Positions 27,322 through 35,614 of a DNA stretch of 43,782 nucleotides are shown in pieces (within the stretch, counting starts at the first letter, position 1; each line of letters starts with the position of its first letter). This DNA comes from Clostridia bacterium (GTDB lineage: Bacteria; Bacillota; Clostridia; Oscillospirales; SIG627). Made by a program: the position numbers and the translations under genes. Location: positions 1 through 43,782 of the forward strand of contig JAFYTG010000196.1 in the NCBI GenBank assembly GCA_017558945.1, written 5' to 3'. The notes beneath the pieces were generated by a model, which worked only from the letters and a program-made list of their open reading frames with translations, searched no databases and had not been told where the DNA came from.

Positions 27322-27689
27322 AGCTTTAACCCCTCCTTGATATTTTCGAATAGTAAAATTTGAGAATCAAGACGGCTTATTTTATCCGTGAGAGTGGCTT
27401 TAGCCCTCTCAATATCCGTAAGCTCGTCGGATATAAGCTTCTTATAGTATTTGATTGCCTCGATTATTATCTCTCTGTCGGGAGAAGGCGGAGCGGATTC
27501 CGCCTTCTTCTTTTTATTCTTTTTCCCAGTAGGAAGCTTTACATCTTCCCCTTCCGCTCTTAAAAGCTCGATTATATCCTTGACGTCACAGCAGTTGCGA
27601 TCGGCAAGAACCCGAAGCATATCCTCTTTGTTTTTCGCCCTCTGATAATCCTGAACGATTTCCCATATTTCCATGTGAAGCTTAGCCAT
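27318..27689 (-). CDS. ~124-aa hypothetical protein with a Lys-rich linker and coiled coil
   Basis: The internal start MAKLHM fits SD ggcggtga. The long N-terminal extension in the ORF track overlaps the upstream gene. Confidence 0.45.
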   Translation of the reverse strand: MAKLHMEIWEIVQDYQRAKNKEDMLRVLADRNCCDVKDIIELLRAEGEDVKLPTGKKNKKKKAESAPPSPDREIIIEAIKYYKKLISDELTDIERAKATLTDKISRLDSQILLFENIKEGLKL

Positions 27690-28035
27690 TAGCATCACCG
27701 CCGATGCCTTTAATGAAATTGGCAAACATTTCTGCCTCAGTGGGAGGCAAAGCAAGTATATCTTCGCCGGCAACGATAGCGAATACAGCAGTACCGACTA
27801 TATAGTCGCCTTCATATATTTTTGATATTTTGGAGGCAAGAGGATTTTCGGGAAGGTTTTTAAGCTTGCCCTCTTCATTGACAATGATAATTCCATCAGA
27901 GGTTATCCCGCACGGTACGGTTTCAATATATCCTCCTACCGCTTCCTGTAAAAATTCGAGCTGTTTATTCTCTTCGGGAGCTCTCTGCTTTTCCACCCGA
28001 CCGTTCGGGTGAATTATAATAAAATACTGTTCCAT
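27682..28035 (-). CDS. DUF3846-like protein
   Basis: LEFLQEAVGGYIETVP...IIVNEEGKLKNLPEN pattern. Confidence 0.55.
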   Translation of the reverse strand: MEQYFIIIHPNGRVEKQRAPEENKQLEFLQEAVGGYIETVPCGITSDGIIIVNEEGKLKNLPENPLASKISKIYEGDYIVGTAVFAIVAGEDILALPPTEAEMFANFIKGIGGDANG

Positions 28036-29244: not shown

Positions 29245-29487
29245 TTATCCCTCCAGAAGTGACTCAAGGACCTCGTAGCCCTCGCTAAGCTTCTCGGAAA
29301 CGTCCTCGATGCATCCGATAACAAGCTCCTTACCGCTGTATCGAGGGTTATCCTCAGACATTGCCGCAAGAAGCTCAAGCTCGTCAGAGCATATCTCGTC
29401 GAGGTCGTTTATGATATTGCCGAGAGCATCCTTGATGGCAATAAGCTTCTCGGAGTTCTTCTTTGCTCTTTCGTTCTTAGTGCTCAT
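29245..29487 (-). CDS. 80-aa strongly acidic hypothetical protein
   Basis: ORF with RBS ggaggg. D/E-rich. Confidence 0.5.
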   Translation of the reverse strand: MSTKNERAKKNSEKLIAIKDALGNIINDLDEICSDELELLAAMSEDNPRYSGKELVIGCIEDVSEKLSEGYEVLESLLEG

Positions 29488-29749
29488 ACAGTCCCTCCAG
29501 CTCTACGTTCTCAAGCTCGGCGCGGAGCTCAAGGATATGTAAGTATTCACCCATAACACTCTGCTGACGGCGAAGAAGCGAAAGCGGACAATCGTGCTTT
29601 ACTTCACCCCCGACAAGCTCCGCAGCCTCAATGGTGTTATTAAATCTTTTGAGACGTTCATAACGTTCCTTGGTTTGTAAATATTCCGCCTGAAACCTTT
29701 CGCGGTAGTCTGAGCTGTTCATCAGCTCCACAGTCTTATTCAAGTCCAT
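29477..29749 (-). CDS. 90-aa conserved phage protein (crAss001_48-related type)
   Basis: MNSSDYRERFQAEYLQTKERYERL...CPLSLLRRQQSVMGEYLHILELRAE pattern. Confidence 0.55.
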   Translation of the reverse strand: MDLNKTVELMNSSDYRERFQAEYLQTKERYERLKRFNNTIEAAELVGGEVKHDCPLSLLRRQQSVMGEYLHILELRAELENVELEGLYEH

Positions 29750-30988: not shown

Positions 30989-31073
30989 GGAAGGGAACGC
31001 AGGACGTTTTCCCTCTCCGCTATATGTTTTTGTAGAATAACGGTTCTTTAGTCGGCGACCGTTATTCTTTTTT
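30989..31073 (+). ncRNA. Candidate ~85-nt antisense sRNA (two hairpins, intrinsic terminator)
   Basis: Hairpin 1 spans about 30987-31020 and is followed by uauauguuuuu. Hairpin 2 is agaataacggt(31034-31044)/accgttattct(31058-31068) followed by T5. No plus-strand ORF is present. Confidence 0.5.
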
Positions 31074-31134
31074 ATTGCCCATTTTTACCACCTACCCTTT
31101 ATCCCTCTTCCTGCAATTGCCTTAGATATATCAG

Positions 31135-31371
31135 TCACTCCAATAGTGCCAGCGATATTAGAGCTGCTACATAAAGCATTAGAATTGTTGCAACAAATAT
31201 TATTATGATTGCAATTACTACCTTCTCAAATGTTGAAAATCCACTCGTTGCACATTCTGGCGGTGCAAACCACTTGCACTTTTTTGGCACTACTTTCCTG
31301 TTCGTGTATGGACAGGTGCCACATTTATATTGCAAACAGTAATAACACCGCATTCGCCATGGGTTATCCAT
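31135..31371 (-). CDS. 78-aa protein with a Cys-rich N-terminus and a C-terminal TM anchor
   Basis: CYYCLQYKCGTCPY...C...C, then VVIAIIIIFVATILMLYVAALISLALL. Confidence 0.5.
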   Translation of the reverse strand: MDNPWRMRCYYCLQYKCGTCPYTNRKVVPKKCKWFAPPECATSGFSTFEKVVIAIIIIFVATILMLYVAALISLALLE

Positions 31372-31543
31372 TTTTCATCACCAAACTTTCATAAATGTAT
31401 CCGCATACAATGTTACAATCATCCTTGTCTTTGCAGGCAGAGCAACACTTTATACCGTCCGTGTGACAGCAAGAACACAACCCACTCGGATTCGCCCCTG
31501 TTACACATATCGGAAGACCTCTCTCGTTTAGTTCTAAGTCCAT
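31364..31543 (-). CDS. 59-aa very Cys-rich protein (10 Cys)
   Basis: MDLELNERGLPICVTGANPSGLCSCCHTDGIKCCSACKDKDDCNIVCGY.... SD aaggag. Overlaps the next ORF. Below the ORF-track cutoff. Confidence 0.4.
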   Translation of the reverse strand: MDLELNERGLPICVTGANPSGLCSCCHTDGIKCCSACKDKDDCNIVCGYIYESLVMKNG

Positions 31544-31573
31544 TTTTAATCATCTCCTTCAGCTTTAATTTTT

Positions 31574-31589
31574 GTCGCACTTATGCGAC
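31574..31589. promoter_or_regulatory. Operator-like palindrome GTCGCA-CTTA-TGCGAC (distal copy)
   Basis: Same half-sites as 31805-31824. Located just after the cro-like stop codon. Confidence 0.5.
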
Positions 31590-31591
31590 TA

Positions 31592-31792
31592 TTAGAGCAA
31601 AAAAAATTCTTTTACTTCCTCGTCGGAAAGCGAAAGGACATTTTTAATACGACGCGCTTCTCCAACAGTAAACTTTTCGCCGTCGTTAAGCTTTCTATAA
31701 AAAGAGCTCTTATCAACGCCTATACTTCGTGCCACGCCTTCGACATTCATCCCAAGATTTAATATTTTGTCTTTTAACTTTTTAGTATCCAT
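31592..31792 (-). CDS. Cro-like HTH regulator (66 aa)
   Basis: Start MDTKKLK with SD aggagg. NVEGVARSIGVDKSSFYRKLN is an HTH. Divergent from the CI-like gene. Confidence 0.7.
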   Translation of the reverse strand: MDTKKLKDKILNLGMNVEGVARSIGVDKSSFYRKLNDGEKFTVGEARRIKNVLSLSDEEVKEFFLL

Positions 31793-31804
31793 TAAACAAC
31801 CTCC

Positions 31805-31824
31805 TTGTCGCACATATGCGACAA
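31805..31824. promoter_or_regulatory. Operator palindrome TTGTCGCA-CATA-TGCGACAA at the cro-like transcription start
   Basis: 8+4+8 perfect inverted repeat between the -10 element and the SD of the cro-like gene. Confidence 0.6.
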
Positions 31825-31828
31825 TTAT

Positions 31829-31857
31829 AAAATATCACACACTTTTAGATTTGTCAA
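31829..31857 (-). promoter_or_regulatory. Early (lytic) promoter TTGACA-17-TATTTT with TGn extended -10
   Basis: Reverse complement of 31852-31857 is TTGACA and of 31829-31834 is TATTTT. Confidence 0.6.
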
Positions 31858-31861
31858 CCTC

Positions 31862-31883
31862 TTTTTTGCAAAAATGCAAAAAA
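31862..31883. promoter_or_regulatory. Second inverted repeat TTTTTTGCA-aaaa-TGCAAAAAA between the divergent promoters
   Basis: Seen directly. Possible second operator class. Confidence 0.4.
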
Positions 31884-31897
31884 ATTTCTTTCTGAGG

Positions 31898-31926
31898 TTG
31901 CAATTTTGCGAAAGTTAGTGTATAAT
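31898..31926 (+). promoter_or_regulatory. Repressor promoter TTGCAA-17-TATAAT
   Basis: -35 at 31898-31903 and -10 at 31921-31926. Confidence 0.6.
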
Positions 31927-31950
31927 GTAAAAGTAAAGGGTGATATTTAT

Positions 31951-32286
31951 ATGCATATAGGAGAGAGAATTAAGCTCCGACGAAAAGAATTAGGCATAAG
32001 TGTAGATGATTTGGCTTCGATTTTAGGTAAAGACCGCTCAACCATTTACAGATACGAAAAGGGTGACATAGAGAGTCTGCCGTTGGATATTTTAAATCCA
32101 ATCGCAAAAGCTCTGCGCACCACTCCTGCAAGCCTTATGGGGTGGGAGGAATCAAACACTCCTGCCGTTCCCAGTTCGCCTTCGTCCATAGATAACGAAT
32201 TTCTTCAAATCCTCTCTACCCTCTCCGAAGAAGATAAACAATGGCTCCTTGACCTCATAAAGACTGTAATTGAAAGAAGAAAATAA
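31951..32286 (+). CDS. CI-like XRE-family repressor (111 aa, no peptidase S24 domain visible)
   Basis: GERIKLRRKELGISVDDLASILGKDRSTIYRYEKG. Only plus-strand gene in the switch. ATG at 31951. Confidence 0.75.
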   Translation: MHIGERIKLRRKELGISVDDLASILGKDRSTIYRYEKGDIESLPLDILNPIAKALRTTPASLMGWEESNTPAVPSSPSSIDNEFLQILSTLSEEDKQWLLDLIKTVIERRK

Positions 32287-32338
32287 AATCCCTCTCGGTT
32301 GTAGCCAAGAGGGAAATTATAACATTATTTTAACGATA
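32285..32338. repeat. ~53-bp repeat copy 1 containing the terminator hairpin ccctctcgg..ccaagaggg
   Basis: About 46 of 53 positions are identical to 33186-33238. Confidence 0.7.
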
Positions 32339-32534
32339 CAATCTCAAGCTCGCACTCAAGTGCTTGGGTTACTTTAAGAAGTGTATCGAGCTGAGGGGTA
32401 GCCTTCTTGCTTTCAAAACGAGCAATAACTGATTGAGTGAGCTTGGTCGCCTCGGCAAGCTCCTTTTGAGTCATTCCTCTGTTATGCCGTTCCTCGATGA
32501 GACGGTCAATGATACGCGAACAGTCTTCAGGCAT
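32325..32534 (-). CDS. XRE-family HTH protein, third gene of the DUF4160-DUF2442 cassette
   Basis: Start MPEDCSRII with SD ggaggtga. Overlaps the DUF2442 stop by 8 nt. GMTQKELAEATKLTQSVIARFESKK. Confidence 0.7.
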   Translation of the reverse strand: MPEDCSRIIDRLIEERHNRGMTQKELAEATKLTQSVIARFESKKATPQLDTLLKVTQALECELEIVSLK

Positions 32535-32826
32535 TCGCTTCACCTCCGACAACGTTGCCGTTCTCATACAAATACTCGGGAGCAATATCTATATCGCCGT
32601 CATTCCACACGGGACAACCGTAATCAATATATACTCCCTTAAAGATTTCAATATCCCTGAGCGGAGCAAAAGCAGGAGCCGACAAGAGAGAGGTAAAATC
32701 AAACATCCTCGTTTCTCCGTTATTAAACCGAACCCATAAATTATAATTATCAAGCGGCTTGACTCCGCAAACCTCAAGAGGCTTTGCCCTCTCGCCCGCA
32801 TATACTATTCCGTTTTCGATATACAT
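32527..32826 (-). CDS. DUF2442-family protein
   Basis: VKPLDNYNLWVRFNNGETRMFDF...PLRD...F..V.....CPVWNDGDIDIAPEYLY. Confidence 0.75.
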   Translation of the reverse strand: MYIENGIVYAGERAKPLEVCGVKPLDNYNLWVRFNNGETRMFDFTSLLSAPAFAPLRDIEIFKGVYIDYGCPVWNDGDIDIAPEYLYENGNVVGGEANA

Positions 32827-32837
32827 TATATCACCCC

Positions 32838-33104
32838 TTATCTTAATGGCTCAATTTTTTCAAACGGTATTCCGCGAACGGCATCATTCCAGGCTTTATA
32901 AAGCTCTTCCTCGTGAATCGCCATCCAAGCCGACACTAATTTGAATTGTTTTATCGGCATTTCCCCGGCTAATATTTCACCGTCCAAAGCAATAACTGCT
33001 TTATACTCGGCATATTGCACGTGAATGTGAGATTTGTTATGTTGTCCAATATCATTGTATTGCATTCTTACTATGATGTTGTAAAATCGGCTAAGCTCAG
33101 GCAT
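32838..33104 (-). CDS. DUF4160-family protein
   Basis: MPELSRFYNIIVRMQYND...HIHVQYAEYKAVIALDGEILAGEMP....LVSAWMAIHEEELYKAW matches the family pattern closely. Confidence 0.75.
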   Translation of the reverse strand: MPELSRFYNIIVRMQYNDIGQHNKSHIHVQYAEYKAVIALDGEILAGEMPIKQFKLVSAWMAIHEEELYKAWNDAVRGIPFEKIEPLR

Positions 33105-33134
33105 TGTTTTATCTCCTTAATCATTTCTGTTATT

Positions 33135-33179
33135 ATTATAGCATATTCGCTATAATTTGTCAATAGCAAATTTGCTATT
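33135..33179 (-). promoter_or_regulatory. Consensus promoter TTGACA-17-TGcTATAAT overlapped by palindrome AATAGCAAA-TTTGCTATT
   Basis: Reverse complement of 33158-33163 is TTGACA and of 33135-33140 is TATAAT. Palindrome at 33162-33179 covers the -35. Confidence 0.65.
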
Positions 33180-33185
33180 TTTTAA

Positions 33186-33238
33186 AAAATCCCTCTCAGC
33201 CGTAGCCAAGAGGGAAAATTATCACATTATTTACGATA
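33186..33238. repeat. ~53-bp repeat copy 2 (terminator hairpin)
   Basis: Aligned by eye to 32285-32338. Confidence 0.7.
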
Positions 33239-33252
33239 TGTGCAGGCCGTAC

Positions 33253-33492
33253 TCACGTTCCGTTAAGCCAAAGCTCGTCGCACGATATATCTATATCGTC
33301 GTTCCATATAATGCCGTAGCCACCCACGTCAACGGCGACATCCTCAAACAACGGAGAGTCCTTCAGACCTCTGAATATCGGGTTTTTATCAAAAAGCGGT
33401 TCGACGTTGTATATTTTAGTTATGCCCTCCGAAAACTGTATGCTGAGCATATAATTCGGCAAAGCCTGAACACTTTTTATTTTGTGAAGCAT
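33253..33492 (-). CDS. Second, stand-alone DUF2442-family protein
   Basis: VQALPNYMLSIQFSEGITKIYNVEPLF...GYGIIWNDDIDISCDELW. RBS aaaggag. Confidence 0.7.
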   Translation of the reverse strand: MLHKIKSVQALPNYMLSIQFSEGITKIYNVEPLFDKNPIFRGLKDSPLFEDVAVDVGGYGIIWNDDIDISCDELWLNGT

Positions 33493-33595
33493 TTTATTTC
33501 TCCTTTCACTTAAGTGCTTAGTATAAGCGTATCACGATACCGTGATATTGTCAATGTTTATTTTGCTTTTCTTCACATAAAGCAAAAGGAGGAGC

Positions 33596-33745
33596 TTATC
33601 GCTCTCCCCTTTTGTGTCTGACCTTTTTCTTGAGCTTATTAAGTACCGTTTTCTTTTCCCTTGCGGAAAGGGTCTTCCAAAGCGCAAGAATTTGAACATC
33701 TGTCTGCAAATTTTCTTTTTTGTAGATAACGTCCGTGTTTTTCAC
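33596..33745 (-). CDS. 49-aa basic hypothetical protein (GTG start), paralog of 1334-1480
   Basis: SD aaggcggtga 7 nt upstream of the GTG. TDVQILALWKTLSAREKKTVLNKL aligns with TDREILNLWATLAESEREEILRRL. Confidence 0.4.
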   Translation of the reverse strand: MKNTDVIYKKENLQTDVQILALWKTLSAREKKTVLNKLKKKVRHKRGER

Positions 33746-33900
33746 ATTATCACCGCCTTTGTTTTTTACTTCGCTATTTATATGAATTACAATAGCCGAT
33801 AGAGTAAAAAAGCCCTCTTCTCAAGGTGTAAGAGGGGATAAAATGCCAATTTGCTATTTTTTACCAATTATGGCGATAAATAAATATAACAAGGACATAC

Positions 33901-33940
33901 TGTCGAAAAAACGAATTTCTTGTACAATTGTCGAAAAAAA
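33901..33940. repeat. Two direct TGTCGAAAAAA repeats upstream of int (candidate arm-type recombinase sites)
   Basis: Copies at 33901-33911 and 33929-33940, 28 bp apart. Confidence 0.35.
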
Positions 33941-33998
33941 CAAAAAATCCTCTCTTGCATTGCAAAAGAGGAAGGATTTCCAAATTATCGGGTGAGCT

Positions 33999-34994
33999 AT
34001 GACACGACGTTCTGACGGTCTCTGGCAGGAGGCTATCACAATCAACGGAAAAAGAAAATACTTCTACGGCAAAACCAAGGCAGAGGTTCTCAAGAAGCTT
34101 AGAGACTACCAGGGTGAGACGGAACAGGGCAGACTGTTCCGAGAGGTTGCTGAGGAATGGTGGGAGGAGCATTCGCAAAAGGTCGTCCCCTCTACGATGA
34201 GCGGATATAACGCGCGCTTTCTGTGTGCGGTTGAATATTTTGACGACAAGAGGATCAAGGACATAACACCGCAGGACGTTACAAAGCTTCTCAAGTCCTT
34301 GCAGGACAAGAAATACTCGCAAAAGGTTATCTCCACACAGCTTAACGTTATAAATATGATTATCAACGTAGCAATAATCAACGGAGATATAACCTACAAT
34401 CCCTGCTCAGCCGTTCAGATTCCGAAGGGACTCCCAAAGAAGAAGCGCGAGCTCCCTACGGATAAAGAATTTGAAATCGTTGAAAACAGCGATTGGCTGT
34501 TTCCGTTCTTTCTCCTTTATACCGGGTGCAGACGCGGTGAGGCTCTCGCCGTTACGTACGAGGATATAGATTGGGAGAAAAAAGTTATTCACATCAATAA
34601 AGCCGTTGGCTTTAAAGGAAATATACCATACATCAAATCAACTAAAACCGAAGCAGGTCACAGAGACGTCGTTCTCCTCGACAAGCTCGCCGCAAGGCTC
34701 GATAGGTCTAAAACAGGACTTATCTTTCCGAACAACAAAGGCGAGCTCTGGCACGATTCCATGGTTCAGAGAAAATGGAAGCAGTGGCAGAGGAGATACA
34801 ACACCTCCGTTACCGCGCATCAGCTAAGACACGGTTACGCTACAATTCTTTTTGAGGCGGGGCTTGAGCCAAAGGATGCACAGTATCTTTTGGGGCACAG
34901 TACAATATCAATGACGCAGGATATTTACACTCATATCAGACAAGCGAGACAGCAAGAATATGCTGTAAAATTGAATGATTTTTTGAACAAATAA
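33999..34994 (+). CDS. int: Tyrosine-type site-specific integrase
   Basis: TGCRRGEALA (catalytic Arg), HQLRHGYAT, LLGHSTISMTQDIYTH (HxxR, H, Y). Adjacent to attR. Confidence 0.9.
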   Translation: MTRRSDGLWQEAITINGKRKYFYGKTKAEVLKKLRDYQGETEQGRLFREVAEEWWEEHSQKVVPSTMSGYNARFLCAVEYFDDKRIKDITPQDVTKLLKSLQDKKYSQKVISTQLNVINMIINVAIINGDITYNPCSAVQIPKGLPKKKRELPTDKEFEIVENSDWLFPFFLLYTGCRRGEALAVTYEDIDWEKKVIHINKAVGFKGNIPYIKSTKTEAGHRDVVLLDKLAARLDRSKTGLIFPNNKGELWHDSMVQRKWKQWQRRYNTSVTAHQLRHGYATILFEAGLEPKDAQYLLGHSTISMTQDIYTHIRQARQQEYAVKLNDFLNK

Positions 34995-35047
34995 TGCAAA
35001 TTTGATGTAGTAAGTCGGTTTTTGCTCTATATATAGCGTTTTGTTGG

Positions 35048-35073
35048 GGGTTCGAATCCCATCACTCACCCCA
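35048..35073. repeat. attR core (displaced tRNA-His 3' fragment)
   Basis: Exact copy of 28-53. The upstream sequence is not tRNA-like. Confidence 0.9.
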
Positions 35074-35081
35074 CAAAAAAA

Positions 35082-35111
35082 ACAGTACTCCGTTTGGAGT
35101 ACTGTTTTTTT
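35082..35111 (+). terminator. Original host tRNA terminator
   Basis: Stem acagtactcc/ggagtactgt with loop gttt, followed by T7. Confidence 0.8.
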
Positions 35112-35196
35112 GTGGTTTATTTGAGCGGTGTATCCTTGTGTCCAAAAAAATGTACACGTCATATTTAACCTCTTTTTTGTAAATAATCATTAGTGC

Positions 35197-35245
35197 ATAT
35201 CCTATTAGGATATATACATTATTTTAACATATCCCATTAGGATAT
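35197..35245. promoter_or_regulatory. Two 17-bp palindromic operators ATATCC(T/C)ATTAGGATAT upstream of the host XRE gene
   Basis: Copies at 35197-35213 and 35229-35245. Centres are 32 bp apart. Confidence 0.55.
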
Positions 35246-35278
35246 ACAATAACCTTAATGAAAGTTGTTGAGGTTAAA

Positions 35279-35614
35279 ATGATGAATTTGGATTACACGA
35301 TTATAGGCAAAAGAATAAAAGAGACAAGATTGGAAAAGGGGTGGACACAAGCAATGCTTGCAGAAAAATCGGGTATTGAGCCATCAAACCTTTCTCACAT
35401 CGAAAGAGCTGCAACAAAATTAAGTCTGCCAACCCTCATCAGCATCGCAAATGCTTTAGAGAAAACACTTGATGAGCTTGTATGGGGAAATCTTGTAAAA
35501 AGCTCTCACGTTTCGAACGATACGATAGAGTCACTTCTTGCCGATTGCACAGACCGTGAGCTTATTAAAATTGCAGAAATAATTAAAACCGCCAAAGCCA
35601 TACTCAGAGACTAA
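35279..35614 (+). CDS. Host XRE-family transcriptional regulator
   Basis: GKRIKETRLEKGWTQAMLAEKSGIEPSNLSHIERA. Confidence 0.75.
   Translation: MMNLDYTIIGKRIKETRLEKGWTQAMLAEKSGIEPSNLSHIERAATKLSLPTLISIANALEKTLDELVWGNLVKSSHVSNDTIESLLADCTDRELIKIAEIIKTAKAILRD

Follow-up and report, generated by a model that had tools for sequence, protein, structure and literature searches.

Background

Pairs of small genes encoding DUF4160 and DUF2442 proteins, which rank among the most common gene pairs of this kind in bacteria, have only recently been shown to be toxin-antitoxin (TA) systems. Here, we analyze a 43,782-nucleotide stretch of DNA from a Clostridia bacterium (GenBank assembly GCA_017558945.1, contig JAFYTG010000196.1), referred to below as the window, which contains a prophage with a three-gene relative of these pairs. 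The cassette encodes a DUF4160 protein, a DUF2442 protein and a small XRE-type helix-turn-helix (HTH) protein and lies in the prophage between the genes for the repressor and the integrase. We consider it probable that these genes form a three-component type II TA operon of the DhiTA family, carried as prophage cargo and expressed in the lysogen.

The closest described system is dhiTA of Dickeya dadantii 3937, a DUF4160/DUF2442 pair reported in 2021 in which the toxin gene comes first. Overproduction of DhiT inhibits the growth of Dickeya and Escherichia coli and is harmless when DhiA is co-expressed, and the dhiTA promoter is repressed by ~ 50% by the antitoxin and by 70-99% by the complex (PMC8198452). 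The NCBIfam family NF048015 (“type II toxin-antitoxin system toxin DhiT”) goes back to this system. The second relative is the “Persistence-Enhancing Module” of Thermus thermophilus, described in 2025 on plasmids of the Senami strain and consisting of DUF4160 (87 aa) and DUF2442 (92 aa) genes; the pair increases the persistence of plasmids, and deletion of the DUF2442 gene is not possible in Thermus, the antitoxin gene being needed to tolerate the toxin (PMC12724237). Thus, the first-pass annotation of the window, which attributed no established function to DUF4160/DUF2442 pairs, has been overtaken by these reports, and the label of unknown function should be corrected to a type II TA system of the DhiTA type (PMC8198452, PMC12724237).

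The window cassette shares with DhiTA the Pfam domain pair, the reversed, toxin-first gene order and the close spacing within one operon. However, DhiTA consists of two genes, whereas the window adds an XRE HTH gene that overlaps the antitoxin gene, together with two predicted operators tied to this HTH. Promoter autoregulation is demonstrated for DhiTA (PMC8198452) and is predicted from the operators for the window; the hosts also differ, an enterobacterial chromosome in one case and a gut Firmicute prophage in the other. The Thermus module likewise has a homologous pair with the toxin gene first, and the toxin and antitoxin encoded by plasmid pTthSNM3-3d from the Senami strain (PLSDB) share 42% and 35% identity, respectively, with those of the window. 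It differs in being plasmid-borne, in having two genes and no HTH gene, and in its demonstrated role, which is plasmid persistence.

The omega-epsilon-zeta system is a three-component type II TA system with a separate transcriptional regulator. PaaR2-PaaA2-ParE2, from the prophage immunity region of the cryptic prophage CP-933P of E. coli O157:H7, also has three components, and in it a separate regulator rather than the antitoxin represses the operon (PMC8630535). A separate, co-oriented DNA-binding regulator gene (HTH_3), as found in three-component TA systems, is also present in the window. The likeness is nevertheless one of analogy and not of homology, as the proteins (ParE, zeta) are unrelated and the regulator gene is first in those systems and last in the window; no matches of the window toxin or antitoxin to zeta/epsilon or ParE/PaaA2 were obtained in Pfam, NCBIfam and PDB searches. 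In NE0471 of Nitrosomonas europaea (PDB 2AUW) and in PHROG 29047, a single chain combines a DUF2442-like fold with an HTH at its C-terminus, whereas the window has two overlapping genes in different frames. Finally, a DUF4160 domain is the proposed toxic effector of NsnC in the Menshen system and is reported there to lack a confident structural homologue (PMC12065111); Menshen is a multi-gene defense system, and its other components are absent from the window locus. What is new here is not the pair, which was already known, but the third gene, an XRE protein of its own to which DNA binding is apparently delegated and which comes with a clearly defined pair of operators. This refines a known family and does not overturn current ideas.

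Results and discussion

Organization of the three-gene cassette

The cassette can be read directly from the sequence as a predicted promoter, two putative operators, three coupled open reading frames (ORFs) and a terminator. All three genes are on the minus strand and agree with the first-pass annotation, including the 8-nt overlap. The predicted DhiT-like toxin gene (32838-33104) encodes an 88-aa DUF4160 protein (PF13711, 69.1 bits against a cut-off of 23, E 3.9e-19). It is followed after 11 nt, which include a Shine-Dalgarno (SD) sequence, by the gene of the predicted DhiA-like antitoxin, a 99-aa DUF2442 protein (32527-32826; PF10387, 50.9 bits, cut-off 23.9) that we call DUF2442a. The third gene (32325-32534) encodes the predicted repressor, a 69-aa XRE protein (HTH_3, 47.1 bits); it overlaps the DUF2442a gene by 8 nt (ATGCCTGA) in a different frame and has its own SD sequence, GGAGGTGA, 5 nt before its start codon. 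Strong terminators bound the unit, which also speaks for a self-contained operon.

The DUF4160 protein retains all invariant residues of its family (H26, H28, D41, G42, W60, H64, E65 and E67) and is identical across contigs from at least four samples. Its structural model is confident (pLDDT 91.7) and consists of five strands followed by two helices. No structural match with E < 0.29 was found for this model in PDB or BFVD, and a sequence search of PDB yielded nothing real. The invariant H26, H28, D41, H64, E65 and E67 hint at an enzyme. A contig with an apparently shorter toxin (L025) was discarded as a variant, as it is explained by a scaffold gap filled with Ns.

The DUF2442a model (pLDDT 90.2) has its best PDB match in the N-terminal domain of NE0471 (2AUW; probability 1.00, TM 0.60, rmsd 2.4 Å). 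The nearest solved relatives of the HTH protein are the TA antitoxins HigA (6af3, E 4.8e-11) and HipB, in which only the HTH part is aligned. In the 159-position profile of PHROG 29047, positions 9-82 match DUF2442a and positions 92-150 match the window HTH. Since this profile covers DUF2442a and then the HTH, and the DUF2442a model fits 2AUW, the triad resembles a split DUF2442::HTH fusion. The split form is not a recent frameshift because it is kept across all triad loci. For the same reason, a frameshifted fusion or a programmed frameshift was rejected as an explanation of the overlap: the two frames, the 8-nt overlap and the strong SD sequence are preserved in all triad loci at 56-82% identity.

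Promoter and putative operators

The triad promoter (33135-33163, minus strand) consists of the -35 box TTGACA (33163-33158), a 17-nt spacer and the extended -10 box TGcTATAAT (33143-33135). As stated in the first-pass annotation, the match is perfect, and it is the only 12/12 sigma-70 match in the region, with the TG in addition. The other triad loci share this architecture (TTGAC or TTGAT, 16-17 nt, TATAAT or TATACT). A further promoter-like match, TTGAGC-18-TGaTATAAT (10/12 with TG; 32825-32854, minus strand), is located within the 3' end of the DUF4160 gene, with its -10 box overlapping the DUF2442a start codon; it could be due to chance or be an internal promoter adding a downstream transcript.

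Two predicted operators of the form ATAGC-N6-GCTAT, to which no strand is assigned, flank and enter the promoter. O1 (ATAGCAAATTTGCTAT, 33163-33178) abuts the -35 box with a 1-nt overlap, and O2 (ATAGCGAATATGCTAT in minus-strand reading, 33138-33153) occupies the spacer and the start of the extended -10 box. O1 is the core of an 18-bp palindrome (33162-33179) that was earlier thought to cover the -35 box; the palindrome exists, but it overlaps the hexamer by only 2 nt, its bulk lies upstream, and O2 had been missed. In the promoter alignment of the triad loci, the two sites are spaced by 24-25 bp.

A key question is whether these sites belong to the HTH gene. Both are present at 0 mismatches at the window locus. 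Across the triad loci, O2 is conserved with 0 mismatches in 10/10, and O1 occupies the same position in 9/10 with up to two mismatches, the exception (L012) having one clear operator copy only. The O1+O2 double site was found in none of the 40 loci that lack a window-type HTH. No such site was detected in the five loci with other HTH types, and among 35 pair-only loci a single weak site was present in two and the double arrangement in none. This co-occurrence is the strongest evidence obtained, and from it we infer that the third gene encodes the operon repressor. The autoregulation implied by the first-pass annotation is supported accordingly as a prediction, with putative operators in all ten triad loci, paired in nine.

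Conservation of the pair and the triad

Triad loci were collected via close antitoxin relatives in IMG/VR and toxin relatives in public assemblies. The same three genes, with 56-82% amino-acid identity, are present in L005, L008-L012, L014/L015, L021-L023, L038, L100 and L101 (our locus numbers), and the 8-nt overlap recurs in independent gene calls in L014, L015, L021, L022 and L023. The backbones vary: a truncated tyrosine integrase accompanies the triad in L014, a large serine recombinase directly precedes it in L012, pRha and S24-peptidase genes surround it in L021 and L022, and AntA and Mrr-type endonuclease genes adjoin it in L009. The module appears to be recurrent cargo beside integrase genes of gut Firmicute phages.

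In species-representative genomes, DUF2442 directly follows DUF4160 in 73 of the 80 loci surveyed, and the window-type HTH is present in three of the 80. The HTH genes in this survey were detected with seven seed sequences, which would miss divergent HTH types, so that the count of 67 pair-only loci is an upper bound. In a genome scan, at least 568 stretches, among the 600 listed, encode a relative. The pair is the rule; the triad represents a smaller, conserved lineage that is often met with in those phage-borne relatives that were examined.

Other loci have alternative DNA-binding partners. An MqsA-like HTH (L013) or an 82-aa HTH_3 protein (L006) is encoded downstream of the pair, and a HicB-like gene (L007, L036) or a CI_repr-like gene (L017-L020) is located upstream. 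In L017-L020, which are Phascolarctobacterium prophages, the latter encodes a 78-aa HTH protein, ends 4 nt before the pair and thus puts the regulator first, opposite to the window order; the pair itself lies between ArdA and terminase genes. In one of these prophages (L018), a PhdYeFM/YoeB TA pair is inserted near the DUF4160-DUF2442 pair.

Proposed mechanism

In the mechanism that we propose, the consensus sigma-70 promoter would produce one mRNA encoding the DUF4160 toxin, the DUF2442 antitoxin and the small XRE HTH protein, with translation of the HTH gene coupled through the 8-nt overlap and the mRNA ending at the terminator in repeat copy 1 (see below). By homology to the tested systems, the toxin is expected to be neutralized by the antitoxin, and the experiments on the Dickeya and Thermus homologues suggest that this would occur by direct binding. 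The HTH protein, probably as a dimer, would bind O1 and O2 and repress the operon, as its strict co-occurrence with these sites across loci suggests; the separate gene would supply the DNA binding that in NE0471 and PHROG 29047 falls to an HTH fused at the C-terminus. By analogy, if expression stopped because the prophage was lost or an infecting phage shut transcription off, the antitoxin could be depleted and the toxin could then arrest growth. The triad with its operator pair represents a ready-made system for testing the regulation of DhiTA modules.

Flanking terminator repeats

Two imperfect repeats of ~ 53 bp, each containing an intrinsic terminator on the minus strand, bracket the cassette, as had been described. 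Copy 1 (32285-32338) includes the last HTH codons and the stop codon and serves as the predicted terminator of the triad, with a hairpin at 32289-32314 (-20 kcal/mol, z -6.1). Copy 2 (33186-33238) starts 14 nt past the stop codon of a second DUF2442 gene, DUF2442b, and appears to terminate that unit, with a hairpin at 33190-33215 (-19.6 kcal/mol, z -5.1), thereby insulating the triad promoter. In both copies, a minus-strand U-run follows the hairpin. In a flank-versus-flank BLAST comparison, the copies align with 87% identity over 55 columns (E 1.9e-13). Because the identity spans ~ 20 nt beyond the stem, the repeats are homologous to each other rather than simply two terminators of a generic kind. 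Copy 2 also retains, in degenerate form, the last HTH codons and the stop codon found in copy 1.

Another question is whether the repeats mark the insertion of the cassette, as proposed in the first-pass annotation. The homology on which that proposal was built stands; the footprint itself is weakly supported. Such flanking repeats occur in none of ten other cassette loci (best flank-to-flank E 0.025), whose terminators are unrelated to the window repeat, and no exact match to the repeat core was found in IMG/VR or the JGI metagenomes. The repeat was found only in this prophage, and this confinement points to a local recombination event rather than a feature of mobility. We read copy 2 as probably derived from the 3' end of the triad and now terminating a truncated second module, i.e., as a local recombination scar.

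A cassette-free sibling phage, against which insertion could be judged, was sought by protein look-ups, among integrase and cI relatives and by repeat scans, and none was found. Exact-protein look-ups with DUF4160 and DUF2442b returned the same prophage only, and the integrase relatives are at most 47% identical. DUF4160 and DUF2442 are absent from the 97 loci with cI relatives, in which the shared DNA similarity is limited to cro and cI (31570-32156). In two cI relatives, the integrase gene follows 15-126 nt downstream; with these as a reference, the 1.7-kb interval between cI and int in the window fits acquired cargo.

A second DUF2442 gene

DUF2442b (33253-33492, minus strand) encodes a 79-aa protein (47.5 bits) of a distinct sub-lineage, 35% identical to DUF2442a, and its unit ends at repeat copy 2. 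The protein ends with the DUF2442 domain, and it has neither a toxin nor an HTH: the whole window contains only one DUF4160 gene, with none upstream of DUF2442b, and encodes no HTH_59 domain. The nearest relatives of DUF2442b (65% and 54% identity) are proteins of 147-166 aa in which DUF2442 is fused to HTH_59 (DUF2442::HTH_59); one of them is encoded after a DUF4160 gene. A promoter-like region of DUF2442b (33526-33554, minus strand) comprises TTGACA (33554-33549), the palindrome ATCACGgtatCGTGAT (33531-33546) and a weak -10 box, TACGCT. The ATCACG-N4-CGTGAT half-sites of this promoter recur in the promoter of L034, which has DUF4160 and DUF2442::HTH_59 genes. As HTH_59 is missing from the window, the palindrome would be an orphaned operator. 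We propose that DUF2442b comes from a second DhiTA-type module, of which it is a remnant or the orphaned antitoxin; the locus would then exemplify an antitoxin of this kind that has stayed behind next to a complete module.

Solo DUF2442b-type forms of 78-85 aa are common among the relatives, and the three contexts examined lack DUF4160. In L117 (2743-2830), past the stop codon of an 81-aa solo DUF2442 gene, another frame still reads TPFDGLMAL..., a sequence that forms the linker in DUF2442::HTH_59 fusions, and this remnant suggests that solo forms arise repeatedly by truncation of fusion genes. In the metagenome contigs L120-L122 (~ 1626-4244 of L120), solo 82-aa DUF2442b-type genes occur without DUF4160 and are immediately followed by an ATPase gene (AAA_15/AAA_21, 464 aa) and a gene for a protein of 235 aa; the solo gene of L121 adjoins an AbiEii gene. 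An association of orphan DUF2442 genes with a defense-like operon is possible in these contigs.

Taken together, the two DUF2442 genes allow a bolder interpretation, which we regard as improbable: DUF2442b could act in trans as an antitoxin against DUF4160 toxins of the host or of rival phages, as an anti-addiction or anti-defense decoy, and the triad could be the abortive-infection weapon of the phage. DUF2442b, lacking its cognate HTH, might then be expressed constitutively. If this were true, one protein family would provide a pair of offense and immunity.

Weighing of alternative explanations

Several observations count against the interpretation of the cassette as a three-component DhiTA-type TA operon. 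Its TA activity is taken from homologues, and the lability of the antitoxin and the trigger of toxin release are assumptions. The DUF4160 protein scores 72.7 bits against NF048015 (toxin_DhiT), under the equivalog cut-off of 100, and thus belongs to the same superfamily without being an equivalog; moreover, it has Ser at position 25, where at least 90% of its relatives have Pro25. DNA binding by the HTH protein is supported by co-occurrence alone, and since the Dickeya two-gene system autoregulates without a separate HTH (PMC8198452), the proposed division of labor is only inferred. Finally, DUF4160, DUF2442a and DUF2442b had no match in PADLOC-DB 2.0 at E <= 0.1, where the third gene is matched by generic HTH models only. 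The same absence of a PADLOC model for either domain weakens the most credible competitor, which we judge possible though clearly the less probable of the two, namely that these parts were selected not because they stabilize the prophage but because they protect the lysogen from phages, through abortive infection or superinfection exclusion. The cassette does sit in a cargo slot of the lysogeny module with its own promoter and terminator, related modules adjoin integrases, the AntA antirepressor and the Mrr-type endonuclease, NsnC proteins of Menshen carry DUF4160 as an effector domain (PMC12065111), and solo DUF2442b-type genes are found beside AbiEii and the AAA_15/21 ATPase. However, the tested homologues gave growth inhibition (PMC8198452) and plasmid persistence (PMC12724237), the available parts of these reports mention no phage-defense test, and the sequence does not separate defense from addiction.

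The remaining explanations are considerably weaker. Decay operates at the locus, as DUF2442b has lost its toxin and HTH, and together with the serine at the near-invariant Pro25 this would fit a remnant that is no longer toxic, like many chromosomal TA loci; such a state is nevertheless unlikely for the triad, in which the three ORFs, the good SD sequences, the perfect promoter, the mismatch-free operators and the terminator are all intact, the invariant toxin residues are all kept and the protein is the same in different samples. For the repeats, it could be argued that two independent terminators became alike by chance or convergence and are silent on the history of the locus, given that both copies look like functional terminators of separate transcription units and that nearby minus-strand hairpins (33948-33972 and ~ 33808-33835) also have CCTCT/AGAGG-type stems. 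We consider this very unlikely: the alignment includes the ~ 20 nt upstream of the stem that have no structural role and correspond in copy 1 to the last HTH codons, and the other cassette loci and metagenome scans provided nothing comparable. Least probable is that the cassette is not a TA system but a regulatory module of lysogeny, an excisionase (recombination directionality factor) or anti-repressor acting with the neighboring integrase. The genes do adjoin int, an O1-like site is located upstream of int (33841-33858), and DUF2442b matches phrog_2655 (“excisionase”, E 1.7e-11). This match covers only the DUF2442 part (positions 9-93 of 181), and the label is misleading, since it stems from the HTH_59 domain fused to DUF2442 in the relatives and absent here. 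The int-proximal site has three mismatches and one good half-site and was rejected as an unconvincing third operator. Most DUF4160-DUF2442 pairs, in addition, are located on chromosomes or plasmids, and no HTH gene was detected alongside them (integrases were outside the scope of this survey), the Phascolarctobacterium prophage pair lies between ArdA and terminase, and the direct toxicity and the neutralization of homologues are demonstrated (PMC8198452, PMC12724237). The idea of a TA-like accessory operon in a variable slot between cI and int is supported.

Locus setting

The window is identified as a prophage by genes for the small and large terminase subunits, a portal protein, a structural protein and a replication initiator, all on the minus strand. 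The lysogeny module forms the right end of the prophage region and comprises a cro-like gene (31592-31792, minus strand), a cI-like XRE repressor gene (31951-32286, plus strand) and a tyrosine integrase gene (33999-34994, plus strand; Phage_integrase, 84.2 bits), the last two being the left and right borders of the cargo slot. Five minus-strand ORFs fill this interval. The triad is located there, as had been recognized, but it is not the sole cargo: DUF2442b and a 49-aa ORF (33596-33745, minus strand), both between repeat copy 2 and int, had been missed. The triad HTH gene and cI are convergent, with repeat copy 1 in between.

No RNA family was detected by Rfam within 31000-35600. A strong terminator-like hairpin on the minus strand (33948-33972, -15.5 kcal/mol, z -4.4) is found just upstream of the int start codon, and a weak one (~ 33808-33835, -9 kcal/mol) lies beside the O1-like half-palindrome. 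The palindrome TTGTCGCAC(T/A)TATGCGAC occurs in two copies on either side of the cro-like gene (31564-31589 and 31805-31832), one in the divergent promoter region of cI and cro and one downstream of cro; these are probably operators of the immunity switch. In the early region, two minus-strand genes have Pfam matches to Sequestin (29477-29749; PF21825, 90 aa) and DUF3846 (27682-28035; 117 aa), and their products are possibly counter-defense or accessory proteins.

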